Assembly (NCBI GenBank): GCA_026391075.1
Contig: JAPLES010000009.1
Location: 32,828 to 96,827, forward strand
Direction of reading: 5' to 3'
DNA length: 64,000 nt
DNA from: Bacteroidota bacterium
GTDB lineage: Bacteria; Bacteroidota; Bacteroidia; Chitinophagales; LD1
The notes beneath the pieces were generated by a model that made no database searches, had not been told where the DNA came from, and saw nothing but the letters and a program-made list of their open reading frames with translations. This document shows, piece by piece, positions 1-64,000 of this stretch (position 1 is the stretch's first letter; every line of letters starts with the position of its first letter). Position numbers and translations under genes: made by a program.

Positions 1-474
1 ATCAGCAATGTTTCGGGCGATAGAGTGATTCATTATTACAGAGAAGGATTTACACACACTAATCCATTGGTTTACTTGCGCACTATACCTACCTCTGGTC
101 TCGCAGGAACTCTTTTAGCCAGCCTTTCTGATAACGATAATCAAAGTGTGCTCGCAGTTTTTACGGCTAATCAAGCAACGGTTGCCGGTCGCGATTCACT
201 GCTGGTAGATAACGTGGTGCTTTCAACCACAACCATTACACCGGCAGCCAACACTGTTATAGCAATGTTTTTGTTTGATGGCAATAATAATCAACATAGC
301 GACTTTACCGTTCCCGGATTTTTCTCGGTGCTTACTACTTTCTTAACGGCACGCGATATGTATTTTCAAACTTCAGCACCTACCACAATTCCATTGCGTT
401 TTAATGGGCGAAATTTATTTGTACCTAATTTAAAATCGCATACAGATGGAGTGATGGTGGCCGTTTTTGATTGA
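1..474 (+). CDS. hypothetical protein, C-terminal fragment (frame open to the left window edge)
   Basis: Frame 1 has no stop from nt 1 to the TGA at 472-474. The listed ORF merely begins at an internal GTG (25). No family recognised. Confidence 0.45.
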   Translation: MSNVSGDRVIHYYREGFTHTNPLVYLRTIPTSGLAGTLLASLSDNDNQSVLAVFTANQATVAGRDSLLVDNVVLSTTTITPAANTVIAMFLFDGNNNQHSDFTVPGFFSVLTTFLTARDMYFQTSAPTTIPLRFNGRNLFVPNLKSHTDGVMVAVFD

Positions 475-522
475 CAAACTAAAAATTGTGCTAAGTATTT
501 TAGTTTATTTAAAAAACACTTT

Positions 523-530
523 TAGATTTG
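523..530 (+). promoter_or_regulatory. candidate Bacteroidota -7 promoter box (TAGATTTG, consensus TAnnTTTG) upstream of recA
   Basis: TAGATTTG lies 22 nt upstream of the recA ATG. No clean -33 TTTG box was seen at the expected spacing. Confidence 0.3.
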
Positions 531-551
531 CACTTAATAAAAACAAAAACT

Positions 552-1601
552 ATGAACAAAGCTTCTGACGAAAAGAAAGAAAAAATGAAAGCTCTTCAAC
601 TTACATTGGATAAGTTGGACAAGGCGTACGGCAAAGGAACCATTATGAAACTGGGCGATTCGAAAGTGATGGGTGTGGAATCTATTCCTACCGGCTCACT
701 CGGATTGGATATAGCCCTTGGTATAGGTGGTTTGCCAAAAGGAAGAGTAATAGAAATTTACGGACCTGAATCTTCCGGTAAAACAACGCTCGCTATTCAG
801 GCGATAGCAAATTGCCAAAGACTAGGAGGCATCGCAGCTTTTATAGATGCAGAACATGCTTTTGATAAAACGTATGCCGAAAAATTAGGTGTGGATGTAA
901 ATAATCTTTTGATTTCTCAACCCGATGATGGCGAACAAGCTTTGGATATTACAGAGCATTTGATTCGTTCAGGAGCAATTGACATTATTGTTATTGACTC
1001 GGTGGCGGCTCTTGTTCCGCGCAGTGAATTAGAAGGTGAAATGGGCGAAAGCAAAATGGGATTGCATGCACGTTTGATGAGTCAGGCGTTGAGAAAGCTG
1101 ACAGGAACAATTTCTAAAACAGGTTGCTGCTGCATTTTCATCAATCAGTTGCGCGAGAAGATTGGAGTGATGTTCGGTAATCCGGAAACAACTACGGGCG
1201 GTAATGCTTTGAAGTTTTATGCTTCGGTGCGCTTGGATATTCGCAGAATTGGTCAGTTGAAAGATGGCGATAATTTGATTGGTAACAGAACCCGTGTGAA
1301 AGTAGTGAAGAATAAAATGGCTCCGCCTTTCAGAACCTGTGAGTTTGACATTATGTATGGGTTGGGGGTTTCTAAAAATGGCGAAATCGTTGACATGGGA
1401 AGTGAACTAGGCGTGATGCAAAAGAGCGGTTCATGGTATAGTTACGAAGGAACAAAACTAGGACAAGGTCGCGATGGAGTAAAACAAATGCTGGACGACA
1501 ACCCGGGACTTTCTGCTGAAATTGAAGCCAAGATTAAAGCCAAAGTGATGGCAGGAATTGAAGTAGTAAAAGTAGACGCTGAAGGAGAAGAAGCGGAATA
1601 A
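552..1601 (+). CDS. recA: recombinase RecA
   Basis: Walker [10 protein letters not shown] and RecA-typical blocks ([46 protein letters not shown]). ATG at 552 (MNKASDEKK) is preferred over the TTG at 528. Ends in TAA at normal RecA length. Confidence 0.97.
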
Positions 1602-1632
1602 TTAGCAGAAGTTTATTTAATTGACAAGAGAG

Positions 1633-4288: not shown

Positions 4289-7200
4289 ATGAAGCCGTTC
4301 AAAACAATTCTCCTGAGTTTTTTTTGTGTGATATTATTTTCCGCCCAAGCTTCGGAACCAGCATTAAAATTTATTGAAAACAAAAATCAGTTTGATGCAC
4401 GTGCCTTGTATATGGCGGAGATGAAAGGAGGAGGAATTTTTTTGGAGCGCTCGTGTTTTACTTATGTTTTTTATAACGGCAATGATTTGAATGCAATTGA
4501 AGAACAAATGCACGATGGAAATTATGCCCGTGTTGATGAATTGCCTTTGCGCGGACACGCCTACAAAATGCATTTGCAAAATGCGAATGAAGCTGCAACA
4601 GTTATCGGTGAAGAGAAGTGCCGTGAGCAATACAATTATTTTTTGGGAAACGATAAATCGAAATGGGCGGGGAATGTGCCGTTGTATGGTGCGGTTAATT
4701 ATCATGAAGTGTATCCGCAAATTGATTTGAAAGTTTATAGTGAAGGCATGAATGCGAAGTATGATTTTATTGCCGCAGCAGGTGCTGATGTTTCGAAAAT
4801 TGCTTTGCTGTTTGAAGGAACAGATGGGTTGGAATTGGAGGATGGCGTTTTGAAAATTAAAACTTCGGTGGCTACGATTGTGGAGCAACGACCTTTTGCT
4901 TTTCAACTAATTGATGGCAAGAAAAAGGAAGTGCGTTGTGAGTACGCTTTGCAAAACGAAACGGTGACGTTTAATTTTACCGATGGATATAATCACAGTT
5001 ATGAATTAGTGATTGACCCCGTTATTGTAGCGGCAACTTATTCGGGCACTACATATCGAGCGTATGCACACAGCGCAGCGTATGACCAACACGGAAATAT
5101 TTATTCGGCAGGCAGAGCGTTTTCAGTAAATGCCAACGGTACCGGTGCCGGGTATCCGGCTACAGCGGGTGCGTTTCAAACTACGCATCATGGCGGCTAT
5201 CAGGATATATGCGTGAGCAAGTATAACCCCGATGGTTCATCGCTGTTATGGGCAACATATATTGGCGGTAGCGGACAGGAGCAACCGCACAGTTTGTTTG
5301 TAGATGCCAACGACCAGTTGTATATCTACGGCACTTCGAACTCTACCAATTATCCGGTGAGTGCGAATGCATATCAACCCGTGAATCTTCCTGATAATTT
5401 CGGAAATCATTTAGATGATATTGTAGTGACCAAATTAAATTCATCGGGTTCTGCTTTGCTTGGTTCAACGTATGTGGGCGGAAGAAGTGAAGAGGACGGC
5501 ACGAACTGGTCGACCGTGGAAAGATATTATGGCGACCGTTTTAAAGGAGAGATTGTGGTTGACTCTCTTGGCAATGCTTACGTGGCGAGTTACACGCGTG
5601 CTTCCGATTTTCCAATTACTGCGGGTGCGTTTCAAGCCACGTATGGCGGAGGATACCAAGATGGAGTTTTGTTTAAACTGAACAGCGATTTGTCATCGCT
5701 GGTATGGAGTACATTTATTGGCGGCAATAAAGAAGATGCCTGTTATGGTTTGCGGTTAGATGCGAACGGAGATTTATTTGTAACCGGTGCTGTTTCGAGT
5801 AATGCGATGACAAATACTGCTGGCACAATTCATACAAGCTATCAGGGTGGATTGTTTGATGCGTTTGTGATGCACGTGCGTACCGATGGGCAAGCGGTTT
5901 TGAAATCAACTTATTTTGGTTCGGCAGGTTAAGAGCAAGCATACTTGCTTGACTTAGACAAAAACGGAAACGTTTACATTTTTGGTTCGAGTCCGAACAA
6001 TGCCTTTCAAGCAACAGCAAATGCTTATCAGGCGGTTGGTGTTGGTGCGTTCATTGCGAAACTGAAACCAACATTGGATTCTGTTCTTTTCGTCACCACG
6101 TTTAATGAAATTGCTCCGACCGCTTTGATGGTAGATGAGTGCGGTTATATCTACGCGGTTGGTCACGGAGGTTTGAACACGAGCATAGGAACATGCACCG
6201 GATTTCAATTGACACCCGATGCTTTTCAGACAGGCAGCGGTGGTTTTTATATGTTGACTTTGGAGCCCGATGCCATTGCATTGAAGTTCGGTTCATACTA
6301 TGGACCAACCGATTCGCATGTGGATGGAGGAACCTGCCGCTTTGATAAACGCGGAATAATTTATCACGCGCTGTGCACCGACAAAACAACTTTATACACT
6401 ACGGCAAACGCGTTTCACACCACAAAACTCTCCAACGATTTTGATGCTACTGTTTTCAAAATAGATTTTCAGGCAGCGCGTGTTTATGCTGATGCATTGG
6501 CTACGATTGCAGGCAGCAATGATACTTCTGCCAATGTGCAGAGTTGCAATTCGAACACGGTGCAGTTTATCAATCATTCAACCAATGCGCTTCAATACGT
6601 TTGGTATTTCGGCAATGGAGATTCTTCAACAATTGCGCAACCGGCTTATACTTTCAGTGCAACAGGTTCACATGTAGTGATGCTCGTGGCAATAGATTCT
6701 TCGAGCTGCAATAAAAAAGATACTGCTTATGTAACAGTGAGTACCGGCTCTGTGGCGGTGAGTGCTTCGGCTACCAACACAGCATGCAACAGCGCATCGG
6801 GAAATGCAAGTGCAACTATCACGAGTGGCACAGGACCTTATACTTACGCATGGAGCAACGGAGGAACGAGCGCTTCCATTTCTAATCTGCCTTCAGGAAA
6901 TTATACAGTGACAGTGACCGCCAGCGGCAACTGCACGGCTACTGCAAGTGCTACTGTTGTTTCTTCGAATGGAGTTACGCTCTCTGCAAATTCTACTAAC
7001 ACAAGTTGCGGAAATAATAACGGAAGTGCGAGTGTGACCGCTACTACAGGAGCAACGCCATTCAGTTATTTATGGAGCAATGGCGCAATAGTTTCTTCGC
7101 TTAATAATCTTCCCTCGGGAAATTATACGGTGACGGTAAACGATGCAAATAATTGCAGTGCAACCGCAAGTGTGCAAGTAGATACAAGCAATAATATTTC

Positions 7201-7873
7201 CGTAACTATTGCGAGTGATAAACCGATTATCTGCATTGGCGACAGCGCGCATGTATGTGTAACCACAACACACGGTTCTTATTTATGGAACCTCGGACAA
7301 ACCACGCAGTGCATTTACACCAAGCAAGCGGGCAATTATTATGTAACCGTAACCGATGGAAACTGCACCGCTACTTCTAATCACCTTGCAGTAAATATTT
7401 ATCCGCTTCCACCGGTTTCTATCAGTGTGAACGGAGACACCATGACGGCATATTCGGCAGTTACGTATCAATGGTATTTGAACAATGCAGAAATCGCAAA
7501 CGCTACTTCGCACATTTACATTGCCCAGCAAGCTGGCTATTACTCAGTGGCAATTACAGACACGAATGGCTGCCGTGTAGTTTCAAATAATGTTTTTGTA
7601 GGCGGAACAGGAATTGGAAATTTAAACGGTGATGCGCGGGTTGAACTCTATCCAAATCCAAGCGGTGGAAATTTTGAATTGCGGATTGCCAATTGCGAAT
7701 CTAAACAGCCATTGAACGTTTTTATTTTTGATGTAGAAGGAAGAAAAGTTTTTGAGCAGAAAATAATTGCCGCTACAACCAAAATGAATTTGCTCATGCT
7801 GGAAAGTGGAGTTTATTTTTTGAAGCTAAGCGGAAACAACTTCGCTATTACAAAAAAGATAATCAAAGACTAA
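4289..7873 (+). pseudogene. SBBP beta-propeller / PKD / SprB-repeat T9SS surface protein interrupted by one in-frame TAA at 5930-5932
   Basis: ORFs 4289..5932 and 5945..7873 share a frame. The signal peptide is only on the first and the T9SS CTD (LYPNPSGGNFELRI...GVYFLKL) only on the second. The repeat motif continues across the stop. PKD-like segment and three SprB-type repeats (CNSASGNASATITSGTGPYTYAWSNG...) lie in the second part. Confidence 0.7.
7670..7704. repeat. heptamer tandem repeat (aattttg aattgcg gattgcc aattgcg aatctaa) inside T9SS CTD codons
   Basis: Five 7-nt units read directly; they encode NFELRIANCESK. Confidence 0.75.
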
Positions 7874-7876
7874 ACA

Positions 7877-8833
7877 CTACTTCTTCTTCAACCCAATCTC
7901 CACCAATCTTTCATTCAGATATTCTCCTGCAGAAATTGGTGTATAAGCAATTGGATGGTTTGCACTTACGCAACTTGCCAAACAATCTAACCGCATTTGG
8001 CTGCGAGGATGCGTGAAGAAAGGAATAGAGAAACGCGAGGTATGCCATTTTTCACGCGGTGGATTTACAACGCGGTGTGTAGTTGATTTCAGTTTGTTGT
8101 TAGTGAGGCGTTGCAGCATGTCACCTACGTTTACCACAAGGCAGCCTTCGGGTGCGGTAATGTCGAGCCATTCTTTTTGTCGGTTGAGTAACTGCAAACC
8201 TTCGGCACTTGCGCCTACGAGAAGTGTGATGAGGTTGATGTCTTCATGCTGCTCGGCACGCACCGCACTTTTTGGTTCGTTCATGATTGGCGGATAATGA
8301 ATAGCGCGCAAAATAGAGTTGCCATTGTGAATGTGTTTATCGAAATAAAATTCTCCAATGCCTAAATGAATAGCAATGGCACGCAGCAATTCGCGCGCGC
8401 TTCCTTCAAATGATTTGAAAAGTTTTTGCCCCAGTTCATAAAACTCGGGCACTTCATCTACCGCAATATTATCGGGGTAATCTTCCTTGGGCATTACTTC
8501 ACCTTCTACAATTTGTCCCATTTGCCAAAACTCTTTGAGGTCGGGCGCATCGTAACCTTTGGCGGTTTCTTTTCCAAACGAAGTATAACCACGTTGCCCC
8601 GCTAGTTCTACCTTTTCATATTTCTTCTTTTCCTCGCGGTTCATCGCAAAGAATTTTTTTACAGCATCATAATATTCATCAATCAGTTGCGGTAGCACGC
8701 CATGATTTTTTACAGAAACAAAACCAACTTCTTCAAACGCACGACCAAGCTCGTGCACAAATTTTTGTTTCGATTCATTATTGCCCGAAGTAAATTCAGA
8801 GAGGTCAACAACAGGAATAGTATTTAACGACAT
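7877..8833 (-). CDS. 2-oxoglutarate/Fe(II)-dependent oxygenase (isopenicillin N synthase family)
   Basis: 318 aa. An HxD...H type core (EQHEDINLITLL ... STTHRVVNP) and an N-terminal non-haem dioxygenase region. Confidence 0.8.
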   Translation of the reverse strand: MSLNTIPVVDLSEFTSGNNESKQKFVHELGRAFEEVGFVSVKNHGVLPQLIDEYYDAVKKFFAMNREEKKKYEKVELAGQRGYTSFGKETAKGYDAPDLKEFWQMGQIVEGEVMPKEDYPDNIAVDEVPEFYELGQKLFKSFEGSARELLRAIAIHLGIGEFYFDKHIHNGNSILRAIHYPPIMNEPKSAVRAEQHEDINLITLLVGASAEGLQLLNRQKEWLDITAPEGCLVVNVGDMLQRLTNNKLKSTTHRVVNPPREKWHTSRFSIPFFTHPRSQMRLDCLASCVSANHPIAYTPISAGEYLNERLVEIGLKKK

Positions 8834-8857
8834 AAGGGTTGTATTAAATTTTAGAAA

Positions 8858-10411: not shown

Positions 10412-10497
10412 AGTAGCTGAGGGCGAATATATCGGATAATAATGCGAATTTTTTCTCTTCAATTTCTTTTCTACTCTTGTGACAGCTAATCACATCT

Positions 10498-10875
10498 ATG
10501 AATCTTGACGAAGAAATTTATAAATCGCTCCACGATGATTTGGAAATATGCCGCGATTACATCCGTCAAATTTCTATGGGCATGATTAAAGGTGAAGTGA
10601 CGAAGTATCCGATTTTTGTAGCCACGCGCGGAGAGAACGATGTAGATATTGGTTTGCCAATTGTGAACCGTGCAGACTTTGATATCAGTTGGAATTTCAA
10701 CGCATCGCACCTCGAAGAGTTTGTAAGCAAAGGAGTGGTAGTGCGCGACAAGACGAACGATTTTATTAAAGCGTATAAAAATCCGCTGGAGTTTATGTGC
10801 GTGTTTGTAGCCGAAGAAGAGGCGATGAGTTTTGTGTTTATGCCTTATGAACGCAACAAAGCAAATTTGAATTGA
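10498..10875 (+). CDS. hypothetical protein (125 aa)
   Basis: Clean ORF with an ATG start, divergent from the upstream gene. No motif recognised. Confidence 0.5.
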   Translation: MNLDEEIYKSLHDDLEICRDYIRQISMGMIKGEVTKYPIFVATRGENDVDIGLPIVNRADFDISWNFNASHLEEFVSKGVVVRDKTNDFIKAYKNPLEFMCVFVAEEEAMSFVFMPYERNKANLN

Positions 10876-10953
10876 ACGAATTCTGTTTCGCAAAACCTCC
10901 TCGGTGTTAGTACTTTCCCATTTTGCTTTTCAGCTATTTGTCAAATTAGCGCA

Positions 10954-12132: not shown

Positions 12133-12137
12133 TGAGT

Positions 12138-12212
12138 AAATTTGGAAATTTGGAAATGGAGGATGTTTATCATTTTCAAATTTCCGAATTCTCGAATTTT
12201 CAAATTCAATAA
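12138..12212. repeat. inverted arms of 8-nt tandem repeats forming a long hairpin between the GT2 gene and the permease gene
   Basis: Left arm aaatttgg aaatttgg aaatgga. Right arm ttttcaaa tttccgaa ttctcgaa ttttcaaa ttcaataa. 12141-12156 pairs with 12173-12188 over 16 positions (14 Watson-Crick plus 2 G-U). Confidence 0.75.
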
Positions 12213-14452: not shown

Positions 14453-14459
14453 AGTAACG

Positions 14460-20631: not shown

Positions 20632-20649
20632 AATTTTTAGTTTCTGGCT

Positions 20650-54436: not shown

Positions 54437-54438
54437 AA

Positions 54439-54464
54439 CCCCCAACCCCCTAAAGGGGGCTTAA
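54439..54464. repeat. C5/G5 hairpin element, copy 3 (cccccaaccccctaaagggggcttaa)
   Basis: Read directly, 3 nt after the adaptor gene's stop. Confidence 0.85.
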
Positions 54465-54480
54465 TGCAAAATCTTTTTAG

Positions 54481-57400
54481 ATGAATACGGAACGCCTCAA
54501 AGAATTAAAATTTACCAGTTGGTGTATTGATAATGCAACCAGCATTTATGTTTTCACCACAATCATTGTTATTTCGGGTTTGCTTGTTTATCAAAGTTTG
54601 CCGAAGGAATTATTTCCCGATGTTGTGGTTCCTACCATTTCTATTGCCACTATTTATCCGGGTGCCACCCCTGAAGATATTGAAACGTTGATTACTAAAC
54701 CCATTGAGAAACAAGTAAAGAGTATAAGTGGTGTAAAGAAAGTAACCAGCAATTCGCTTTCTGATGTTTCCATTATCACCGTTGAGTTTTCTACTGATTT
54801 AAAACCTACCGAGTGCAAACAAAAAGTTACTGATGCAGTGGCTAAAGGTAAAAAAGATTTGCCTACCGATTTGAAAACAGACCCGCAAATTCAAGAGTTT
54901 GATTTGAACGAGTTACCGATTATGAACATCAACATTGCCGGTGATTTTCCGCTAGACCAGATAAAAAAATACGCCAAGCAGCTGAAGGACAAAATAGAAA
55001 GCCAAAAAGAAATTACACGGGTTGATATAGTAGGTGGAGTAGATAGAGAAATTCAAATTAATGTGGACTTGTATAAAATGACGAGTGCCGGAATTTCTTT
55101 TTTGGATATTGAAAATGCCGTTCAGCGCGAGAATTTAAATATTTCGGGTGGTGAAGTGAATGTTGGCCAAGTGAGACGAAACCTTCGCGTAACAGGCGAG
55201 TTTAAACAACCAAAAGAAATTGGTGAAATAATTGTTCGCTCATTTACCGGCACTACCGTTTTTCTAAAAGACATTGCCAAGGTTGAAGATGGTTTTAAAG
55301 AGAAACAAGATTTTGCACAACTCGATCACAAACCGGTTATAGCTTTGAACGTGGTAAAACGCAGTGGCGAAAACTTAATTAATGCTACCGACCAGATTTA
55401 TCAAGTGCTGGAAGAATACCAAACCAATAAATTTCCTCAAGGACTTAAAATAAAAGTAACGGGCGATACATCAGAAAATACCCGCGTTCAGCTACACGAT
55501 TTGTTGAACACCGTAATCATCGGTTTTATTTTCGTGGTTTTTATTCTCATGTTTTTCATGGGGTTTTCTAATGCGTTTTTCGTAGGGCTTTCGGTTCCTT
55601 TAGCAACACTTGTTGCATTTTTGTTTATGCCGGCTCTTGGAATGACCATGAACGTAATGGTTCTTTTCTCACTACTGCTCGCACTTGGTATAGTAGTAGA
55701 TGATGCCATCGTAGTTATTGAAAACACACACCGTATTTATAATCGTTACGACTATGGCATTAAGCAATCGGCAAAATTTGCCGCAGGCGAAGTTTTTATG
55801 CCGGTACTTGCCGGAACGTTAACCACACTTGCCCCTTTCTTTCCGCTCTTATTTTGGCCGGGCATTATTGGAAAGTTCATGAAAAATCTTCCCATTACAC
55901 TTATTGTAACCTTAGGTGCTTCGTTGTTTGTAGCTTTTGTAATGAATCCGGTTTTTGCGGTTTCGTTTATGAAAAAAGATGATCACAACGCCAAATCGAA
56001 ATTGAAAGATTACTTAAAAGGCTTTATCCTTTTTGGGGTATTGGCAATAGGCGGATATGCAACAGGATATATAGGAGTAGGAAATTTTGCATTAACGGCT
56101 ATCGTTTTTATTCTGCTTTACCATTTTGCTTTATCTGGCGCAATTGTTTTGTGGCAAACAAAATTTTGGCCTATGGTAACCAATGTGTATCGCAAAATTT
56201 TACGTGTGTTTATTCAACGCAAACGTCCAATAGCTGTTGTATCAGCTACTCTGCTTTTGCTCGTGATTAGTTGGACCATTCTTTTTATTACTGGTGTTAA
56301 ACGCGAATTGTTTCCAAGTGGCGACCCTAACTTTGTGTATGTGTACTGCCGCTTGCCCAGTGGAACCGATGCTACTGCAACCGATTCAATAACACGAATT
56401 ATAGAAGGGCGTGTTTACAAAATAATGGGGGAGCATAATCCCGATGTGACTTCTGTAATTTCAAACGTTGGTTTAGGTGCCGGTGACCCTCAGAATCCCG
56501 ATAAAGTAGCTACCCCCAACAAAAGCAAAGTTACTGTTGCGTTTAAAAAATTTGCCGACCGAAAATATCCGCATACACAAATTTGGTTGGACAGTGTAAG
56601 AAATGAGTTTAAAAAAATTGGTATTGCTGGAGCCGAAATTTCGGTAGAGCCTGAAAGTAATGGACCACCAGTGGGCAAGCCAATTAATATTGAAATAAGT
56701 GGCGATGATTTTACTGTAATGAAAAGTTTGGCTTCTGAATTAAAAGCCAAAATTGATAAAGAAAATATTCCGGGTATTGATGAACTGAAAAGCGATTTAC
56801 AAATAAGCAAGCCCGAAATAATTATTGATATTGATAAAGAAAAAATGTTGCGCGAAGGAATTTCATTAGGACAAGTAGGTAGCGAGTTGCGTACCGCTTT
56901 GTTTGGAAAAGAAGCTTCGAAGTTTCGCGATAAAGATGAAGACGCATCTATTCAATTGCGCTTGCGTGCAGAAGACCGCATGAAAGTGGAACAACTCATG
57001 AACGTAAATATTTCGTACATGGATTTCAGTTCGGGACAATTTCGACAGGTGCCAATTTCTTCTATTGCCACTATTCACTACGACAATTCAATAAGTGTAA
57101 TCAATCGCAAAAATCAAAAACGTGTAGTAACCTTAGCTTCTGAACTTAGCGAAGACCATACCGCTAACGAAATTATTCCTTCTATAGAGCAGATAATAAC
57201 CAATATGAATGTTCCAGAGGGTTACGATATTAAAATGACCGGTGCCGAAGAACAGGAAAAAGAAACTGGTGTGTTTTTGGGGATTGCTTTTTTAGGTGCT
57301 ATAGCTATGATGTTTATGATTATGGTGTTTCAGTTTAACTCGGTTATTAAGCCACTTATCATTTTCACTACTGTTATTTTTTCACTTATAGGAGTGGCTA

Positions 57401-57846
57401 TAGGTTTTACAATTACGCGAATGACTATGAGCACGGTAATGACCGGAGTAGGCGTTTTTGCCCTTGCGGGAATTGTTATTAGAAACGGAATTCTATTGAT
57501 TGAGTTTATTGATGAATTGCGCGAACGCGGCATGGAAGTAAACGAAGCAGTAATAGAAGGTGGAGCTACTCGTATGACACCCGTTATACTTACAGCCGCT
57601 GCGGCAATACTTGGATTAATTCCGTTGGCTATTGGATTGAATATGGACTTTGCCACTTTATTTAGCGAGTTGAATCCACATTTTTATTTGGGTGGCGATA
57701 ACGTTGTGTTCTGGGGTCCCCTTGCCTGGACTATGATTTATGGTTTAATAATGGCAACGTTTCTTACCCTATTGGTAGTGCCTACTATGTATATACTTGG
57801 TTACAAAACCCGCGAAAAATTCAGAAGAATGTTTTCGAAAGCATAA
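54481..57846 (+). CDS. RND-family efflux transporter permease (AcrB/HAE1-like)
   Basis: 1121 aa with 12-TM, two-large-loop RND architecture and conserved GIVVDDAIVVIEN. Confidence 0.95.
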   Translation: MNTERLKELKFTSWCIDNATSIYVFTTIIVISGLLVYQSLPKELFPDVVVPTISIATIYPGATPEDIETLITKPIEKQVKSISGVKKVTSNSLSDVSIITVEFSTDLKPTECKQKVTDAVAKGKKDLPTDLKTDPQIQEFDLNELPIMNINIAGDFPLDQIKKYAKQLKDKIESQKEITRVDIVGGVDREIQINVDLYKMTSAGISFLDIENAVQRENLNISGGEVNVGQVRRNLRVTGEFKQPKEIGEIIVRSFTGTTVFLKDIAKVEDGFKEKQDFAQLDHKPVIALNVVKRSGENLINATDQIYQVLEEYQTNKFPQGLKIKVTGDTSENTRVQLHDLLNTVIIGFIFVVFILMFFMGFSNAFFVGLSVPLATLVAFLFMPALGMTMNVMVLFSLLLALGIVVDDAIVVIENTHRIYNRYDYGIKQSAKFAAGEVFMPVLAGTLTTLAPFFPLLFWPGIIGKFMKNLPITLIVTLGASLFVAFVMNPVFAVSFMKKDDHNAKSKLKDYLKGFILFGVLAIGGYATGYIGVGNFALTAIVFILLYHFALSGAIVLWQTKFWPMVTNVYRKILRVFIQRKRPIAVVSATLLLLVISWTILFITGVKRELFPSGDPNFVYVYCRLPSGTDATATDSITRIIEGRVYKIMGEHNPDVTSVISNVGLGAGDPQNPDKVATPNKSKVTVAFKKFADRKYPHTQIWLDSVRNEFKKIGIAGAEISVEPESNGPPVGKPINIEISGDDFTVMKSLASELKAKIDKENIPGIDELKSDLQISKPEIIIDIDKEKMLREGISLGQVGSELRTALFGKEASKFRDKDEDASIQLRLRAEDRMKVEQLMNVNISYMDFSSGQFRQVPISSIATIHYDNSISVINRKNQKRVVTLASELSEDHTANEIIPSIEQIITNMNVPEGYDIKMTGAEEQEKETGVFLGIAFLGAIAMMFMIMVFQFNSVIKPLIIFTTVIFSLIGVAIGFTITRMTMSTVMTGVGVFALAGIVIRNGILLIEFIDELRERGMEVNEAVIEGGATRMTPVILTAAAAILGLIPLAIGLNMDFATLFSELNPHFYLGGDNVVFWGPLAWTMIYGLIMATFLTLLVVPTMYILGYKTREKFRRMFSKA

Positions 57847-57872
57847 ATCAAAAACTTACTCCTTAATATATG

Positions 57873-57909
57873 GAACCGCAAAGCTTGAATGTTTTGCGGT
57901 TCTTTTTTT
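57873..57909 (+). terminator. rho-independent terminator after the RND operon
   Basis: gaaccgcaaa pairs with tttgcggttc, then ttttttta. Confidence 0.78.
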
Positions 57910-58074
57910 ATGGTTAGTCAAAAGCTAAGACTTGTATTCCTAAAATTTTCGGGAGTTTCGAAACCTTTTGCAAAACGTTTCCGTTAAAGAACGCACCGAC
58001 TGATGTTTGGCAAAATAAATAATCAAACACCCCCGGTAAAAAATTAAACAACAAAAAACTAAACTTTAAGTAAA

Positions 58075-58884
58075 ATGAAAACTACAACAACCAGATTCGC
58101 GCTAATTGCATTTTTTGCAACAGCTATGGCACTCAGTTCATGCCAGAAGGAAAAAACGAACGTTACATTAAAAACAAACGACACTAACTCATTCCAGTTA
58201 ACCGACCAGATTATTGGCGAGGTAACAGGCTTCAGCGATAATACAGCGGGCAAAACAGAAGGCCCATCATGCAGAACCGTTACTATTGATTCTTCTAACC
58301 CAGCAACACGTGTTTTTACTTTTAATTATGGTGGAGGTTGCCAAACTAGAAGAGGTATTGTGCGCTCAGGTGAAATGATTGTGAGTCTGGACCAAACCAG
58401 CATCACTACTCCAGGTGTTAACATTAATATTTCTTTCAACAACTATATGATTAACAATAATCAAATAACCGGTGGAACTACAGCTATAAATACCGGCTAT
58501 AACGGTAATGGTAATTTGACTTTCACTTTTAATTCAAACCTTACTTCTACTGATATAACTAGCGGTGCTACTTCTAATGCAGTAAGCACAAACTACTACG
58601 AGTGGTTAACAGGTTCAGCTACTTCAACTAAAGAAGATGATACTTACGCAATAACCGGAGGCGGAACAGGAACTGATGTATTAGGAAATAGTTTTACTGA
58701 AAGCATTACTACTCCATTAATTAAAAACAAAGCTTCTAACTGCGTGCCTTTTGCAATCACAGGAGTGGTTTTGAATCAAACATCAGGTCAGTCAGATAAA
58801 ACAACAGACTACGGAAGTGGACTTTGCGATAACCTTGCAATTGTTACACAAAACGGAAACTCACAGCAAATCGTTCTTCAGTAA
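58075..58884 (+). CDS. hypothetical lipoprotein
   Basis: Signal peptide with lipobox ALSSC; T/N/G-rich beta-type sequence. No family recognised. Confidence 0.5.
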   Translation: MKTTTTRFALIAFFATAMALSSCQKEKTNVTLKTNDTNSFQLTDQIIGEVTGFSDNTAGKTEGPSCRTVTIDSSNPATRVFTFNYGGGCQTRRGIVRSGEMIVSLDQTSITTPGVNINISFNNYMINNNQITGGTTAINTGYNGNGNLTFTFNSNLTSTDITSGATSNAVSTNYYEWLTGSATSTKEDDTYAITGGGTGTDVLGNSFTESITTPLIKNKASNCVPFAITGVVLNQTSGQSDKTTDYGSGLCDNLAIVTQNGNSQQIVLQ

Positions 58885-58905
58885 AAACCACAAAATAGTT
58901 TAAAC

Positions 58906-58941
58906 AAAAAACCCTTCCGAAAATCGGAAGGGTTTTTGTTT
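58906..58941. terminator. bidirectional terminator
   Basis: A-run, cccttccga (58912-20) pairs with tcggaaggg (58924-32), then a T-run. Lies between convergent genes. Confidence 0.8.
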
Positions 58942-60288
58942 TTAAAGAACAATGTCTTTAACTTTTATATCCTGCTTTTGTTTCTTGGATAGGAAGGTAT
59001 CCTTGTCTAAAATATTTCTTACCGCGCCATATTTTGAAAACCGCTGACGGGCATATTTTTTAAGATTAGCATCACCCAGTTTAGCATAATTAGAAGCTAT
59101 ATCATTTACGTTTTTGATAACCTGCTCACGAATTGATTTGTAATAATCTTCCTGCATTTTTTGGTCGGCAGGAGAAGGGTAAGTATTTCCTGAAACACTA
59201 TCGGTAAGCAAACTTACAAACGGAGCATTTTTTTTCAGGTCTTCCATATTCTCAGCCAAATCTTTTAATGGAGCCAAAGCTTTTTCGTTATCCGTAATCA
59301 TTTTTGCAGCAGCAACATCATTAATACTATTAAACAAACTCTTTGCTTCTTCTAAACGAAAGCCAACCAGTGCATCGTAAGCGCGACATTTGTCGCCCAA
59401 AGACATATTGCCTGCCTTGTCATATAATTTTGAAGCAAGCAAATAACTTCCTTTATTCATGGTAGATGCTGCGAGTTTTTCAAGTGCTTCATCATTTTTC
59501 TTTTCGCTCAAAGCATCGCCTAAACGCATAATCAAATTGTCCGCTTCTTCAGGACGGTTATCGGCATACAAGTAATCGGCATACTTTTGAATTCCTTCTT
59601 CAACTCCCTGGCTTAAGTAAGCATCAATTGCCTTTACATATTCTTTACGGTTGTAGTAAATATCTCCTGCTTGTTTGGCTCCTTCTAAACTTTTAAGTTT
59701 TAAATAAGTTTCAGCCGCTTTGTTTTCATTGTCTCCGCCTTTGTCAAAATATTCTTTAGCTATTTGTTCGATTTTTACAGCAGCATCGCCAGTAACGTAG
59801 TATTCTATTGCTTTATTGTAACTGCCTGCTCCCTTCTCATAAAAACGGTCACCAATTAATCTTCCTCCTTCTTTGGTAGCATCCGCTTTGGCAAATAAAC
59901 TCATTGCTTTATTCAGCGATTTAGCCTGATTTTTATCGTCTTCGTTAAACGCCTGGTCTACATACGCTTCAGCCACTCTTTTCAATCCTTCCTTCTTTGC
60001 TTCCTTAGTTGAAGCATTGTAAGAATTGGTTGCGTTTACTAAATCTCCTTTTTCAAGATACGCATCTCCAATTACAGCCGACATTTCCTGAGGCTTCATT
60101 CCGCCTTTCTGGAAACTTGCTTTGGCAGTATTGATGCCGTCCTGTCTTTTGGCAGCATCTGCCTGAGCCATAGCTTTTTTAAGCGCTGCGTTACCTTTAT
60201 CAATGTCTTTGTTCTGTGCACTCAACTGCAACGAAACTGCCAACATCATCAAAATGCAGGCGGTTATGCTCAAAATTTTCTTGCTCAT
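58942..60288 (-). CDS. secreted all-alpha (TPR-like) hypothetical protein
   Basis: Signal peptide ending LSAQ; repeated helical GD.Y...Y.KAI.. segments. Confidence 0.5.
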   Translation of the reverse strand: MSKKILSITACILMMLAVSLQLSAQNKDIDKGNAALKKAMAQADAAKRQDGINTAKASFQKGGMKPQEMSAVIGDAYLEKGDLVNATNSYNASTKEAKKEGLKRVAEAYVDQAFNEDDKNQAKSLNKAMSLFAKADATKEGGRLIGDRFYEKGAGSYNKAIEYYVTGDAAVKIEQIAKEYFDKGGDNENKAAETYLKLKSLEGAKQAGDIYYNRKEYVKAIDAYLSQGVEEGIQKYADYLYADNRPEEADNLIMRLGDALSEKKNDEALEKLAASTMNKGSYLLASKLYDKAGNMSLGDKCRAYDALVGFRLEEAKSLFNSINDVAAAKMITDNEKALAPLKDLAENMEDLKKNAPFVSLLTDSVSGNTYPSPADQKMQEDYYKSIREQVIKNVNDIASNYAKLGDANLKKYARQRFSKYGAVRNILDKDTFLSKKQKQDIKVKDIVL

Positions 60289-60410
60289 ATATTTTAGATT
60301 TAGTGTGATTATGGTTTAAATGTAAAAACAAATGGCTTTTGCAAAACTTTATTTTGTCAAAAAATATTCGGCTTGAGGCTATTTTGAATCCAAAACTCCC
60401 TTATTTCTGC

Positions 60411-61226
60411 ATGTCGAAACAAAATAAACAGGCGATGCAGCGCGAAAAAATTTACGAACTCCTCGAACGCAAATACAAGGAACACAACTCGGCTGTTTTC
60501 ATTGAAACCGACCCCATTTCTATTCCTCATCGCTTTTCAAAAAAACAGGATATAGAAATTGCGGCTTTCTTTTCTGCCACCATTGCATGGGGAAACCGAA
60601 AATCAATTATCACTTCGGCTAACAAATTGATGAACCTGACGGATAACGCTCCACATGATTTTGTATTGAATCATCAGGATAAAGATTTGAAACGTTTGCT
60701 TGATTTCAAGCACCGAACTTTTAACGCTACCGACACACTTTATTTTGTTGAATTTTTGAAACAACATTATTTAAAACACGAAAGTTTGGAGGAAGCGTTT
60801 TTAAAGTCAGAAGTCCGAAGTCGGATGTCCGAAGCAACTACTGAAAATGCAATTGCTATTTTTCACGAGAACTTTTTTTCGCTTGAAGATTCTCCGCATC
60901 GTACACGTAAGCACATAGCCACTCCTGTTCGCGGAAGTACATGCAAGAGAATGAATATGTTTCTTAGGTGGATGGTACGAAAAGATAAAAGCGGAGTTGA
61001 TTTTGGAATTTGGAAGAAGATAAAACCCGCACAACTTTTAATTCCGCTTGATGTGCATGTAGACAGAACCGCACGCAAACTAGGCTTGATAAAACGCAAA
61101 CAAACCGATTGGGAAACTGTTTTGGAATTGACCGAAAATTTAAAATCGTTTGACCCTAAAGACCCGGTAAAATACGACTTCGCACTTTTCGGAATTAGTG
61201 TGTTGGATAAAATGCTGATACATTAG
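60411..61226 (+). CDS. TIGR02757/DUF2400-family protein
   Basis: Resembles the conserved family (DPISIPHRF, IAWGNRK, LIPLDVHV). ATG at 60411 or 60435. Contains an in-frame AGTCCGA repeat. Confidence 0.6.
   Translation: MSKQNKQAMQREKIYELLERKYKEHNSAVFIETDPISIPHRFSKKQDIEIAAFFSATIAWGNRKSIITSANKLMNLTDNAPHDFVLNHQDKDLKRLLDFKHRTFNATDTLYFVEFLKQHYLKHESLEEAFLKSEVRSRMSEATTENAIAIFHENFFSLEDSPHRTRKHIATPVRGSTCKRMNMFLRWMVRKDKSGVDFGIWKKIKPAQLLIPLDVHVDRTARKLGLIKRKQTDWETVLELTENLKSFDPKDPVKYDFALFGISVLDKMLIH
60805..60832. repeat. (AGTCCGA)-family heptamer repeat inside coding sequence (agtcaga agtccga agtcgga tgtccga)
   Basis: Read directly. 60809-60822 is an exact 14-mer copy of 11041-11054. Confidence 0.8.
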
Positions 61227-61231
61227 CCCCG

Positions 61232-61558
61232 ATGGAATTTCCTAAAACACTTTTCGATTCGTTTGAAATTGATGAACAACATCTTCCTGCGGCAAATAAT
61301 GAAGAGGAAAAATTTCGTGCTTTTAGGCAGTTACTAATTCAACGAATCGAAGAACTGATTCATCGCGATTTCGAAAAGCTGAAATGGATTTTATATCGAA
61401 TTGATGTTAGCGAAAAGAAACTGAATGAAGCTTTGCAAAATTCAGAAACCGATGCGGCAACAGTAATGGCAGACTTAATTATTAAACGGCAAATTGAAAA
61501 AGCAGAAAGCAGAAAAAAATTTGGCGGTAACGAAAATGATTGGAATTTTGACCTATGA
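61232..61558 (+). CDS. hypothetical protein (108 aa)
   Basis: Clean ORF whose stop overlaps the fumarylacetoacetase start (ATGA). Confidence 0.5.
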   Translation: MEFPKTLFDSFEIDEQHLPAANNEEEKFRAFRQLLIQRIEELIHRDFEKLKWILYRIDVSEKKLNEALQNSETDAATVMADLIIKRQIEKAESRKKFGGNENDWNFDL

Positions 61559-62826
61559 GTAAAGCAAATAACCCTCAATTAAAAAGTTGGGTAGAAGTAA
61601 AACCCGGAAGCGATTTCCCGATTCAGAATCTTCCGTTCGGAATTTTTAGAACAGCCGAAACAAATGCGCGTGCCGGAGTTGCTATTGGAGAATACATTCT
61701 AGATTTAGCTGAAATTGCAAGCGCTGGACTCTTTAATTTATCGCTCGAACAAAAAGTTAGTTTCTCTCATCCCATGTTGAATCCATTTATTGACATGGGC
61801 AAATCGACAACAAATGCAGTGCGCGCGAGAATTTCTGATTTGCTGAATTCAGAAAATTCTGAACTGCGCGACAATGCAGAATTAAGAGCGAAAGCGTTAA
61901 TCAAACAAAGCGATGCAGAAATGCAGAAACCTCTTTGGATTCTTAACTACACCGATTTTTATTCAAGTAAAGAACATGCAACAAACGTAGGCATTATGTT
62001 TCGCGACCCTGCAAATGCTTTGTTGCCAAACTGGAAACATTTACCGGTTGGCTATCACGGTCGAGCTTCTTCTATTGTTGTTTCAGGAACTCCGATTCAT
62101 AGACCCAAAGGACAAACAAAAGCAGATGATGCTCCAATGCCTTCATTTGGTCCAAGCGAACTTTTAGATTTTGAATTAGAGATGGGTTTCATTACCGGAA
62201 AGCGAACGAAGTTGGGAACGAGCATTTCAACTGCAGAAGCGGAAGATTATATTTTTGGAATGGTGTTGTTCAACGATTGGAGTGCCCGTGATATTCAAAA
62301 GTGGGAATACGTTCCGCTCGGTCCTTTCCTGGCAAAAAATTTTGGCTCTACAATGTCGCCTTGGATTGTAACAATGGAAGCTCTTGAACCTTTCAGAATA
62401 GAATCGCCAACACAAGAACCAGAAGTTCTTCCCTACTTAAAATTTGAAGGCAAGAAAAATTTCGACATCAATTTAGAAGTGGAAATAATTCCCGAAAACG
62501 GAAAAGGCAAAACAGTTTCGAAAAGCAATTTCAAATACATGTACTGGAACATGGCCCAGCAACTTGCACATCACACTTCGAATGGCTGCAATATTCAAGT
62601 TGGCGATTTATATGCCAGTGGCACTATCAGCGGACCAACTCCCGATTCGTATGGTTCTATGCTCGAAATTTCTTGGCAGGGAAAAAATCCAATTACAATG
62701 CCCGATGGCACAGAACGAAAATTCATTCTCGATAACGACACCGTTGTAATGAAAGGTTATTGCGAAAAAGATGGAGTGCGAATTGGCTTTGGAGAATGTT
62801 CAGGAAAAATTTTGCCGGCTTTATGA
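61555..62826 (+). CDS. fahA: fumarylacetoacetase
   Basis: 423 aa, N-terminal FAH domain (IQNLPFGIF), and catalytic core blocks (DFELEMG, FNDWSARDIQ, GDLYASGTISG). Confidence 0.92.
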   Translation: MSKANNPQLKSWVEVKPGSDFPIQNLPFGIFRTAETNARAGVAIGEYILDLAEIASAGLFNLSLEQKVSFSHPMLNPFIDMGKSTTNAVRARISDLLNSENSELRDNAELRAKALIKQSDAEMQKPLWILNYTDFYSSKEHATNVGIMFRDPANALLPNWKHLPVGYHGRASSIVVSGTPIHRPKGQTKADDAPMPSFGPSELLDFELEMGFITGKRTKLGTSISTAEAEDYIFGMVLFNDWSARDIQKWEYVPLGPFLAKNFGSTMSPWIVTMEALEPFRIESPTQEPEVLPYLKFEGKKNFDINLEVEIIPENGKGKTVSKSNFKYMYWNMAQQLAHHTSNGCNIQVGDLYASGTISGPTPDSYGSMLEISWQGKNPITMPDGTERKFILDNDTVVMKGYCEKDGVRIGFGECSGKILPAL

Positions 62827-63098
62827 GATATTATTTAATCGCATTGCTCTTTGTAATCATGGGCGCAGGCGCGCGCACTATGTTCGAAATTGCGCATCAG
62901 GGATTAACACAAGAACATGGGATTACTCCTGATAGTGAAACACAAAAACTTATTTTTCTTGCGCTTTGGTTTATTGCCATGATGATGGTTGATGTAATTC
63001 TTATTCGCAACAAAGAATTAAAAAACAGAAATGCTTTCATTGCATTACTTTCATTCGGAGTATTAGTTCCGACTATTTACAAATTCATTTCACATTGA
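62823..63098 (+). CDS. small membrane protein (about 91 aa)
   Basis: The ATG at 62823 overlaps the fahA stop (ATGA). Three hydrophobic segments. The listed 62760 start lies inside fahA. Confidence 0.45.
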   Translation: MRYYLIALLFVIMGAGARTMFEIAHQGLTQEHGITPDSETQKLIFLALWFIAMMMVDVILIRNKELKNRNAFIALLSFGVLVPTIYKFISH

Positions 63099-63099
63099 T

Positions 63100-64000
63100 A
63101 TGCTCTCTATAAACCCAGCTGAAATTCCAATGCCGAAACTGCACGAGTATTTATTGAGTGCAGTTGCTCCGCGCCCCATTGCTTTTGTTTCTACTATTGA
63201 TAAAGAGGGCAACGTCAATCTTTCTCCCTTTTCATTTTTCAATTGCTTTGGGTCCAATCCGCCTACACTTGTTTTTTCTCCAGCAAGAAGTGGTCGCACC
63301 GGTGCAACAAAACACACACACGACAATGTGCTGGTAGTAAAAGAATGTGTGGTGAATATTCCCAATTACGATATGCTTTACCAAATGAATCTGGCAGCAC
63401 ACATGTATCCGAAGGGTGTAGATGAATTTGCAAAAAGCGGGTTGACGAAGCAGGAAAGCATAACCGTAAAACCTCCACGTGTGGCAGAGTGTTTTGTGCA
63501 AATGGAGTGTGAAGTAAAAGATGTGATTGTTACAGGGTTAAATGGTGGCGCAGGTAACTTAGTAGTGTGCGAAGTCAAGATGATTCACATCAACGAAAAG
63601 GTGTTGAATGAAGAAGGCGACATTGACCCGAATAAAATGAATTACATAGCGCGGATGGGAAAACAATTTTGGGCGCGCATTGGTGCGGAAAATATTATTT
63701 CTGTTAGCGGTTTTAAAATGGCAAATGAGTTAGGAATAGGTTGGGATGCATTGCCCAACGGAATTACTCACTCTAAATATCTTTCAGGAAATGATATTGC
63801 GCGGGTTGCTTCGCTTAATGCTTTTCCAACTGAAGAAGAATTAAATGAATTACGTAAGGCAGAATTTGTGCAGGAAATATTTTCAGAATGCAAAAATGAT
63901 TTTGCTGCTCTAGAAAAGGCTATTCATCTGCGCGCAAAAATTGAAATTGAAAGAGGGAGTAAGCCTTTGGCGTTTCAACTATTAATGCTGTCAGAAAAAT
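63100..64000 (+). CDS. flavin reductase-like (FMN-binding split-barrel) protein, 3' end beyond the window; not in the supplied ORF track
   Basis: My own translation from the ATG at 63100: MLSINPAEIPMPKLHEYLLSAVAPRPIAFVSTIDKEGNVNLSPFSFFNCFGSNPPTLVFSPA.... It is open for 300 codons to the window edge, and the N-terminus matches the flavin reductase domain pattern. Confidence 0.78.
   Translation, partial: MLSINPAEIPMPKLHEYLLSAVAPRPIAFVSTIDKEGNVNLSPFSFFNCFGSNPPTLVFSPARSGRTGATKHTHDNVLVVKECVVNIPNYDMLYQMNLAAHMYPKGVDEFAKSGLTKQESITVKPPRVAECFVQMECEVKDVIVTGLNGGAGNLVVCEVKMIHINEKVLNEEGDIDPNKMNYIARMGKQFWARIGAENIISVSGFKMANELGIGWDALPNGITHSKYLSGNDIARVASLNAFPTEEELNELRKAEFVQEIFSECKNDFAALEKAIHLRAKIEIERGSKPLAFQLLMLSEK

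Follow-up and report, generated by a model that had tools for sequence, protein, structure and literature searches.

Tandem heptanucleotide arrays at gene boundaries and in weakly constrained protein segments of an uncultured Chitinophagales bacterium

What kind of process places short, degenerate tandem repeats with a 7-nt unit at the ends of genes and within the export signals of the encoded proteins? The question is raised by a 64-kb stretch of DNA (hereafter, the window) from an uncultured Chitinophagales bacterium (assembly GCA_026391075.1, contig JAPLES010000009.1, positions 32,828 to 96,827). The window is an ordinary chromosomal stretch; its genes include those encoding RecA, CysC/D/N, SecA, PurD, LptC, an RND pump, and five proteins with the C-terminal tail of the type IX secretion system (T9SS); the closest matches to its SecA (92%) and CysD (91%) are both found in Chitinophagales metagenome-assembled genomes (MAGs). 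An earlier note, made from the sequence alone, listed 18 tandem-repeat loci and proposed three possible roles, that is, hairpin-forming terminators or mRNA stabilizers, slipped-strand contingency sites, or traces of a repeat-generating process. We find that the excess of period-7 repeats is real; the arrays are probably, though far from certainly, the products of lineage-specific slippage and homogenization that start from proto-repeats and are kept only where the sequence is nearly unconstrained.

We searched the window with Tandem Repeats Finder (TRF) at a low threshold, using 50 dinucleotide-preserving shuffles as the control. TRF reports 49 repeats, including 15 with period 7 (shuffle mean 1.78, maximum 5) and four with period 8 (2.2 in the shuffles, so an excess is not clear). 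A second, independent scan by lag autocorrelation (minimum 16 matches in 21 at lag k, low complexity removed, 40 shuffles) identifies 13 segments at lag 7, where 0.12 are expected and no shuffle contains more than 1; no segments are found in the window at lags 4–6 and 10–12. Signals at lags 14 and 21 are harmonics, and those at lags 9 and 18 are produced by a collagen-like gene (33195–36023). At lag 8, the scan yields two segments (0.05 expected), both in a single spacer (12128–12207); thus, the period-8 loci of the earlier note exist, but they are confined to one spacer. Depending on the method, period 7 is over-represented 8- to 100-fold relative to the shuffles, and, harmonics and the collagen-like gene aside, it is the only enriched period; the shuffle control that the note had suggested, applied here to the window, comes out in favor of enrichment.

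In total, the window contains approximately 19 heptamer arrays, with 2.1–6.1 copies each (rather than the 3–9 units first counted) and 76–100% matches in the TRF output. TRF, the lag scan, or both recover sixteen of the 18 listed loci where they had originally been placed; others are corrected. The locus at 22014 is too degenerate to be scored by either method; the locus at 25070 is a direct repeat of a different kind (25065–25100, plus strand, following a stop codon; 2.3 copies of a 15–16-nt unit, TRF period 15, score 58) that stands outside the heptamer population; and the supposed tandem array at 20650–20715 is really an inverted pair of heptamer runs, that is, a hairpin. An independent Logan assembly (L084) matches positions 53623–64000 of the window with 1 mismatch in 10,378 nt and reproduces the array at 60804, so the repeats in this segment are not an assembly artefact.

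We scored the positions of the 19 arrays against a curated gene map of the window. For eighteen of the 19, the nearest gene boundary is no more than 250 nt away (42% for random positions, p < 1e-4), in agreement with the concentration at gene ends that the earlier note described. Many arrays end 0–12 nt before a start codon or begin 0–10 nt after a stop codon. Strictly intergenic arrays number six of the 19 (5.5% expected, p = 0.0005); the intergenic share (6–8 of 19) is, therefore, enriched approximately sixfold without being a majority, and more than half of the arrays are located inside coding sequence, where every one of them is in frame. As a comparison set, we collected 1.33 Mb in 83 loci, namely three SecA regions of close relatives (L001–L003) and 80 CysD regions of GTDB species representatives; in these, 55 of 79 arrays are outside long open reading frames (ORFs), where 9.2 are expected.

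Four direct arrays, all on the minus strand, lead into start codons. Four copies of GATTGAA (sense UUCAAUC; 14459–14486, TRF score 42, also a lag-7 segment) end 6 nt upstream of the gene for DAHP synthase/chorismate mutase (13361–14452), which starts with GTG. In the cys genes, a unit composed of two 7-mers, GATTGGAAATTTAA, is repeated 2.6 times (22964–22999, TRF score 65, a lag-14 segment) across the last 8 cysC codons and the cysC/cysD spacer, ending 4 nt before the cysD ATG; a very degenerate TTGAAAA-type run, recognized by eye and below the TRF and lag thresholds, is located in the cysD/cysN spacer (22014–22040) and ends at the cysN ATG. A weak GTTAAAG/GTTAATC array (42642–42672, TRF score 41, lag 7) is located in the 5′ leader of secA and ends approximately 8 nt before the ATG.

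Among the coding arrays, five are found in four T9SS C-terminal domains, and the first array of each domain is found at nearly the same place, 185–195 nt before the stop codon (all plus strand). GAAATAC ×4.7 (2637–2669, TRF score 45; lag-7 segment 2628–2660) encodes KYEIRIGKYEM in the tail of an alpha/beta hydrolase (1690–2841; Por_Secre_tail at residues 332–403), 188 nt before the stop; GAATTGC ×3.6 (7676–7700, TRF score 36) encodes NFELRIANCE in the tail of a PKD/SprB protein (5945–7873; Por_Secre_tail at residues 568–640), 185 nt before the stop and in the same phase as in the other tails; AGTTTCG/GGTTACG ×4 (26582–26610, identified by the lag-7 scan and the tail alignment) encodes SFELRITGYE in the protein at 25184–26782 (Por_Secre_tail at residues 459–530), 186 nt before the stop; and AATTACG ×4.3 (27968–27997, TRF score 46) encodes NYELRITNYE in a hydrolase (26909–28177), 195 nt before the stop. 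The tail of the latter hydrolase contains a second in-frame array farther along, TTCAATC ×5 (28062–28096, QSSVFNFQSSI, TRF score 56). The Por_Secre_tail profile is matched end to end in the array-bearing tails, so the arrays are part of the domain sequence rather than insertions into it.

Four additional arrays encode portions of signal peptides. Two are in n-regions: TTGAAAC ×4.3 (30838–30866, minus strand, TRF score 44, a lag-7 segment, assigned by ORF inspection) is located right after the deoC stop and encodes residues 2–11 (KVSNFNFKFQN) of a SPOR-domain protein, and AACAGAC ×6.1 (44859–44900, plus strand, TRF score 56) begins 9 nt after the upstream stop; its translation, NRQQTTDNRQRIKT, belongs to the n-region of a PGA_cap protein's signal peptide (or to its leader). 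Two are in h-regions, both on the plus strand: TTCAATT ×3.9 (48017–48043, TRF score 40) encodes the hydrophobic core VQFSIFNFQS in the signal peptide of the protein at 47983–49287, and TCTATTG ×3.7 (49340–49365, TRF score 38) encodes the signal-anchor core LSIVFCLSSI of LptC.

The remaining coding arrays are in a linker and a loop, again on the plus strand. GAAGTCC ×3.6 and GTCCGAA ×2.1, in frame (11042–11101, TRF and lag 7), form a pair in the linker that follows the N-terminal transmembrane helix of a GT2 enzyme (10954–12132), whose GT2 domain begins at residue 53–56; the fold of this region has z = −2.1. Between the two AAGTCCG arrays, and in frame with them, is a perfect 9-bp GC-rich hairpin, CCTGCCTG-AAGGA-CAGGCAGG (11067–11086). 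AAGTCCG ×4.4 (60804–60834, TRF score 41) encodes KSEVRSRMSE, in frame, in an indel-rich hypervariable loop of a TIGR02757/DUF2400 protein. The earlier statement that no array is inside a catalytic domain needs amendment because the latter array is within the DUF2400/TIGR02757 domain, albeit in its hypervariable loop; the other placements that the note described (the cysC/cysD and cysD/cysN spacers, sites after stop codons, signal-peptide cores, a fixed place in T9SS tails, and a linker) were all verified. Its reasoning that three heptamers equal 21 nt and so can be in frame is borne out by NYELRIT-NYE in the T9SS tail and by the six-unit (42 nt, 14 codons) extension of the PGA_cap n-region.

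How do these arrays evolve? The cysC/cysD and cysD/cysN spacers of the orthologous L004 and L005 loci, as well as the secA leaders of L001–L003, are similar in length to those in the window and lack periodicity; the spacer arrays are young and labile. Within genes, the sites persist as the units change. In L001 and L002 (86% identical), a polysaccharide deacetylase has an array at the same codons, immediately preceding its RPPYG motif; the unit is TACTGCC in L001 and AAATCCG in L002, and the peptides that result (SAYCVLPTATP vs NPKSEIRNPK) bear no relation to each other. Similarly, the TCTATTG array of LptC in the window is replaced at the same place by approximately nine TTTCCCA units at the 5′ end of the ortholog in GCA_026129525.1 (L089, 15647–15730). 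These replacements show that the process acts on DNA and not on protein.

The same comparisons reveal both seeds and length effects. In TatD, (CACCCGT)x3 of L002 aligns with one CACCCGT plus non-repeat sequence in L001 without a change in length, and the 35-nt TTCAATC array at 28062 aligns gap-free with L004 sequence that is not repetitive and has a single TTCAAT at its end; the L089 ortholog of the protein containing the 48017 array also has a signal peptide of the same length and no array. Length differs at other sites: the L004 ortholog of the 27968 site is array-free and 9 nt shorter; the PGA_cap n-region is approximately 14–16 residues longer than in the array-free L089 ortholog, which fits 6 units (42 nt); and, across genomes, the distance from the cysD stop to a CysN motif has a median of 181 nt with an array and 112 nt without (p = 6e-5). 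The fifth T9SS tail of the window, which is array-free, contains a proto-repeat, TTTTGTAATTTCTATTGCCAAT, where the other four carry arrays in the same phase, so a shared seed and paralogy can explain the four arrays; common ancestry and local homogenization would be sufficient. Independent events or pure gene conversion, which we also considered for these tails, are not needed given the proto-repeat shared with the array-free tail.

We note in passing that, in a second assembly of the L089 organism (L090), the contig ends (15707) inside the LptC TTTCCCA array, and that the PGA_cap start is called differently in the two assemblies (613 vs 648 aa); arrays may, therefore, disturb both assembly and annotation.

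The mechanism that we favor can be described as follows. A DNA-level process, active in this lineage but in few relatives, would expand short proto-repeats, most probably by slippage, that is, by out-of-register realignment of short direct repeats; loops of 7 nt would be too large for mismatch repair and would escape it. The units would then be homogenized within the array (concerted evolution), and the array would spread until it reaches sequence that is protected by selection. Arrays would survive in transcribed spacers, in the n- and h-regions of signal peptides, in the first strands of the cleaved-off T9SS C-terminal domains, in the linker after a transmembrane helix, and in a hypervariable loop; within genes, only length-neutral replacement or a change that keeps the frame would survive. 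Slippage and homogenization would account for the period excess, the boundary bias, the in-frame arrays, the turnover of units, the seeds, and the length effects. We infer that slippage is the enzymatic cause, that units of at least 5 nt are explained by their escape from mismatch repair, and that most arrays are neutral; a minority may have acquired roles at the RNA level, as unstructured leaders or as spacers for translation of the downstream cistron. Among the three roles proposed in the earlier note, traces of a repeat-generating process is the one that the turnover between orthologs, the seeds, and the length-neutral replacements support best.

Slippage could also be put to use: if it altered unit number in living populations, the arrays would be contingency loci for phase variation, in which genes encoding exported or surface proteins are switched on and off. 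Several arrays are indeed at the 5′ ends of exported-protein genes and in T9SS cargo, and a change of one 7-nt unit shifts the frame. However, the arrays are short (2–6 units) and degenerate (76–95% matches), which implies lower slippage rates, and they are in or next to housekeeping genes (cysC, cysD, cysN, secA, lptC, and DAHP synthase). The DUF2400 array is maintained in frame across species of 78–83% nucleotide identity: it is present in L085–L088 (83%), where it is identical in four samples, and, degenerate but present, in L089 (78%). Length variants were found neither among the contigs that we compared, which are clonal replicates, nor in a search of metagenome contigs for other alleles. 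We, therefore, consider a contingency role for these arrays highly improbable.

Do the arrays act as intrinsic terminators or stabilizers of mRNA 3′ ends? An array that adjoins its inverted copy would allow the transcript, or single-stranded DNA, to fold into a long hairpin, and strong hairpins directly after stop codons are formed at two loci in the window and at several in relatives. In the window, hairpins arise only from inverted pairs. The first (12125–12215, z = −3.2) consists of two inverted 8-nt arrays, AAATTTGG ×2.5 and ATTTTCAA ×4.4 (12138–12206, plus strand, TRF and lag 8), that fill the spacer between the GT2 gene and a gene for an OppC-type permease; its stem is approximately 20 bp (minimum free energy, MFE, −25 kcal/mol, z = −3.24) and is not terminator-like. 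The second (20640–20725, minus strand) is the pair of inverted CGTAACC-type heptamer runs (20650–20715) between the cysN stop and the start of a rhodanese gene; it has an MFE of −26.8 kcal/mol (z = −4.05) and no T-tail. The clearest examples in relatives are in L065 (z = −6.8) and L025 (z = −7.2).

Most arrays are direct and unstructured, however, and those before start codons include examples that are less structured than their shuffles (the cysC/cysD spacer, z = +1.25, and the secA leader, z = +1.56; the array upstream of DAHP synthase has z = +0.36). No array hairpin is followed by a T-tail, and none of the nine terminator-like sites identified by a scan of 10.9–30.9 kb coincides with an array; the GC-rich stem-loop with a T/U run that defines an intrinsic terminator was not found at the arrays in this segment. 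The two hairpins in the window are also between co-directional genes of apparent operons (cysN–rhodanese and GT2–permease). Thus, the part of the earlier proposal that predicted hairpins holds for the inverted pairs, and termination or 3′-end stabilization is a very unlikely explanation for the population. A search of Rfam 15 at the gathering score gave no matches in the 64 kb.

The comparison of genomes addresses whether the units themselves are dispersed. Across the 1.33 Mb of related loci, we detect 78 segments at lag 7 and 4–23 at non-harmonic lags. The distribution is patchy: most of the 83 loci, including all those from Verrucomicrobiota and Armatimonadota, have zero arrays, and array-rich loci include L025, L027, L065, L024, and L061. 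L025 (a Saprospiraceae MAG) has 10 arrays in 15 kb, with one family at 10 sites, and enrichment is also observed in Paludibacter, Anaerophaga, Marinilabiliaceae, Vicingaceae, Flavobacteriales, a Chlorobiota MAG, and the closest relatives of the window. L027 (another Saprospiraceae MAG) contains at least nine dispersed octamer arrays at 4332–12446 (AATACCAA and TTAAACAA/TTAAACGA) in addition to heptamers, so the preferred period depends on the lineage. Units that differ by at most one mismatch constitute 19.4% of non-adjacent array pairs within a genome and 4.1% of pairs between genomes (permutation p < 0.0005); that is, each genome has its own dispersed unit families. The sequence families described in the earlier note are, therefore, real, and its suggestion that the same families be sought in related genomes has a divided outcome: the families are mostly genome-specific, but AAGTCCG recurs in distant genomes. 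A scan of viral contigs for (AAGTCCG)x3 gave 13 exact matches (IMG/VR, L091–L103), and these contigs contain 47 lag-7 segments in 112 kb, with many unit families (including TNACTGA) and GC contents of 0.35–0.69; the heptamer state is not limited to Bacteroidota chromosomes.

Dispersal of this type would also be expected if the arrays were copies of small mobile or dispersed elements (similar to REP/BIME or MITE sequences), or if an enzyme with a 7- or 8-nt ruler wrote units at new sites. Genome-specific families at unrelated loci, the single family of L025, the octamer families of L027, the near-perfect inverted pairs in L025 and L065, the patchy taxonomy, the presence of the same unit in distant genomes and in array-rich viral contigs, and the dependence of the period (7 vs 8) on lineage all fit such an origin. 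Against it, conserved termini, flanking duplications, and a fixed length are all absent, and every site has its own copy number and unit variants; replacement can be length-neutral, and arrays have apparently grown from seeds in relatives and paralogs; and no transposase, RAYT, or reverse transcriptase gene was found among the proteins encoded by the 64-kb window. On balance, we regard a mobile or ruler-enzyme origin as improbable.

One indication that some arrays do more than survive is the junction downstream of cysD. In 14 of the 80 CysD loci, an array begins 0–10 nt downstream of the cysD stop, with a different unit in each, and in five it is the only array. Junctions downstream of cysD contain an array in 13 of 63 cases, compared with 24 of 646 for other junctions (odds ratio 6.7, p = 4e-6, not conditioned on array-bearing loci); the ORF map used for this test is crude, so the background is probably underestimated, but by less than would be needed to erase the cysD effect. 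When octamers are included, the cysD–cysN junction is occupied in 18 of 70 diverse genomes, from Bacteroidota, a Chlorobiota MAG, and others. Loci occupied directly after the cysD stop include L005, L007, L018, L025, L027, L030, L031, L046, L048, L051, L052, L053, L061, L065, and L070, as well as the window (22014–22056); in L052, the second array encodes the N-terminal tail of CysN. A TAACTGA-type array upstream of cysN is common to two Marinilabiliaceae genera, with approximately 11 copies in L024 and 8 in L030; the same array differs in copy number between genera, as a microsatellite would. In addition, among arrays in co-directional spacers, purine-rich sense strands outnumber pyrimidine-rich ones by 34 to 12 (p = 0.0016), a bias that is not present in array-free spacers. 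Arrays are found in 20 of 178 co-directional spacers, in 4 of 26 convergent ones, and in 0 of 30 divergent ones. We take the purine bias, the absence from divergent spacers, and the cysD hot spot as hints of secondary selection at the RNA level.

A more general version of this idea holds that the arrays are cis-acting RNA elements, with heptamers in spacers being read by a protein that binds single-stranded RNA and covers approximately 7 nt (ribosomal protein S1, a cold-shock-domain protein, or similar); alternatively, the arrays would be unstructured leaders that set translation of the downstream cistron, and the coding arrays would be collateral copies. Bacteroidota do not use Shine-Dalgarno pairing. 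The proximity of many arrays to start and stop codons, the low structure of the direct arrays before cysD and secA, the 34 purine-rich sense strands among 46 co-directional spacer arrays, the absence from divergent spacers, the frequent occupation of the cysD–cysN junction, and the retention of an array upstream of cysN in the two Marinilabiliaceae genera are all in its favor, and MacGregor's proposal for TAACTGA repeats is similar (PMC4679880). However, one genome uses at least four unrelated families, and unrelated units occupy the same junction in different genomes, which makes a sequence-specific reader unlikely; the orthologous spacers of the closest relatives are array-free, more than half of the arrays in the window are in coding sequence, and the orientation of the TTCAAT family is mixed. 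As an account of the whole population, RNA elements are, therefore, rather unlikely.

Slippage and homogenization remain our preferred explanation, and several observations weigh against it. Purely local slippage does not explain why unit families are common to unrelated loci of one genome, nor why AAGTCCG turns up in distant genomes as well as in viral contigs; likewise, it gives no reason for the strong bias toward 7 rather than 5, 6, or 8, or toward 8 in L027. A neutral model makes no prediction of the purine bias of the sense strand, the absence of arrays from divergent spacers, or the hot spot downstream of cysD. No copy-number polymorphism was observed: the replicates (L085–L088; L089/L090), which are clonal, are identical, L084 is the same strain as the window, and a flank-anchored search of metagenome contigs for further alleles of the 44859 array found none. 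Across species, the DUF2400 array has remained stable. Because the dispersed families, the choice of 7 or 8, and the spacer biases are not explained, we retain the RNA-element and mobile-element explanations as rivals.

One speculative extension, to which we assign little likelihood, would unite several of these observations: array richness may be an actively generated state in which a factor restricted to certain lineages and equipped with a ruler of 7 nt (8 nt in some Saprospiraceae) writes or homogenizes units, preferentially at transcribed operon junctions, with the arrays tuning cistron spacing and translation. If true, it would explain the cysD–cysN hot spot, the purine bias, the genome-specific families, and the arrays in viral contigs.

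How do these arrays relate to repeats that are already known? The short tandemly repeated repetitive (STRR) heptamers of cyanobacteria, reported by Mazel et al. in 1990, form genome-specific dispersed families that are largely non-coding and of unknown function; the classical units STRR1–3 are CCCCAGT, TTGGTCA, and CAACAGT, in heterocystous species. The window shares with them genome-specific families of tandem heptamers dispersed over many loci; it differs in the phylum of its host, a member of Chitinophagales, and in having shorter and more degenerate arrays. No arrays of the STRR1 or STRR2 unit are present in the window. Only the units of the AACAGAC array come close to CAACAGT (STRR3), differing from it by one mismatch each; the resemblance is compatible with chance, given the 4.1% of between-genome unit pairs within one mismatch.

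REPs are imperfect palindromes of approximately 35 nt that belong to one conserved family and have a cognate RAYT transposase. The REP/BIME sequences of Enterobacteria resemble the arrays of the window in that they are short repeats in transcribed spacers after stop codons, some with hairpins. In contrast, the window contains tandem 7-mers of many sequences that are mostly non-palindromic and have no fixed ends or length, and no RAYT gene or other transposase is found among its proteins; on these features of the window, the arrays do not fit the REP, BIME, or MITE type.

The closest precedent is the TAACTGA direct repeat, which is found in Beggiatoaceae, cyanobacteria, and five Bacteroidetes, with other heptamer repeats in the spacers of Gramella and Aequorivita (MacGregor 2015, PMC4679880); the belief of the earlier note that nothing equivalent had been described for Bacteroidota is, therefore, mistaken, since the repeats reported there have the same anatomy. 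As in the window, the TAACTGA system has a period of 7 nt and 2–6 copies per set, has sets that end a few nt before a start or overlap the end of the upstream ORF, is located at the protein periphery when within ORFs, includes occasional inverted sets, and has a patchy phylogeny that includes Bacteroidetes; TAACTGA sets are mostly intergenic (PMC4679880). The unit itself is the one found upstream of cysN in L024 and L030, whereas the window contains no match to TAACTGA x2 with at most 2 mismatches. The window also differs in having at least four other families, more than half of its arrays in frame in genes (T9SS tails and signal peptides), octamers, and inverted hairpin pairs.

A broader class is provided by the survey of long simple sequence repeats (LSSRs) by Mrazek, Guo & Shah (2007), which, as summarized by MacGregor, describes an excess of repeats with 5–11-nt units, of which heptanucleotides are the commonest, a sporadic distribution among lineages, and a proposed origin by polymerase slippage (PMC4679880). 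The excess of tandem repeats, the prominence of heptanucleotides, and the sporadic lineages are shared with the arrays described here; in that account, Bacteroidetes are not listed among the richest genomes, and the unit lengths of LSSRs within genes are mostly divisible by three (PMC4679880), whereas the 7-nt units of the window are in frame in genes. The arrays consist of head-to-tail 7-nt units in excess over composition and belong to recurring dispersed families; they are members of the broad class of heptanucleotide simple-sequence repeats (STRR/LSSR type) that has already been described in bacteria. Since the published units are lacking in the window, they belong to neither the TAACTGA nor the classical STRR system in the strict sense. 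The literature that we searched yielded no further papers on heptamer repeats in Bacteroidota; the new details are that arrays invade T9SS tails and signal peptides in frame, that units turn over at the same site, and that the cysD–cysN junction is a hot spot.

Other features of the window deserve mention in their own right. The purD–secA intergenic region (42690–42840) contains a non-coding block of approximately 100 nt (GGCGCGAATCTAAAATCGCAG...CCACATTCTGCCAATAATTCT), together with a AAAACTTTTAGTTTAGC motif upstream of secA; both, with their counterparts in L001 (9802–9960) and L002 (9800–9950), are near-invariant among genomes whose genes are approximately 80% identical. The block has no Rfam match and no covariation support as a structured RNA, and it may be a promoter/regulatory region or a small RNA. 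The collagen-like gene (33195–36023) encodes a 942-aa protein with collagen triple-helix repeats, the source of tandem repeats of 9, 18, and 57 nt, and with a Peptidase_S74 intramolecular-chaperone domain at its C terminus; tail-fiber-like or surface-fiber proteins typically have this architecture. Finally, two ORFs in the same frame (356 and 103 aa; 23684–25066) are separated by a single stop codon (24752–24754) and could be an interrupted gene or a case of read-through. The two ORFs (23684–24754 and 24755–25066) were also considered as a split paralog of the TPR protein at 31560–33011, with which they have no significant similarity.

To our knowledge, heptamer repeats are among the oldest unexplained features of bacterial genomes and have no known origin or role, despite decades of use as targets for fingerprinting cyanobacteria. 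The heptamer state is patchy across Bacteroidota and extends to a Chlorobiota MAG and to viral contigs. Where it is present, arrays overwrite protein segments of low constraint in frame, including signal peptides and T9SS sorting domains, and they extend ORF calls upstream and can break assemblies; fixed sites persist as the units at them change completely. One conserved operon junction, cysD–cysN, is occupied in approximately a quarter of diverse genomes, and it provides a handle for distinguishing a mutational by-product from a translational element.

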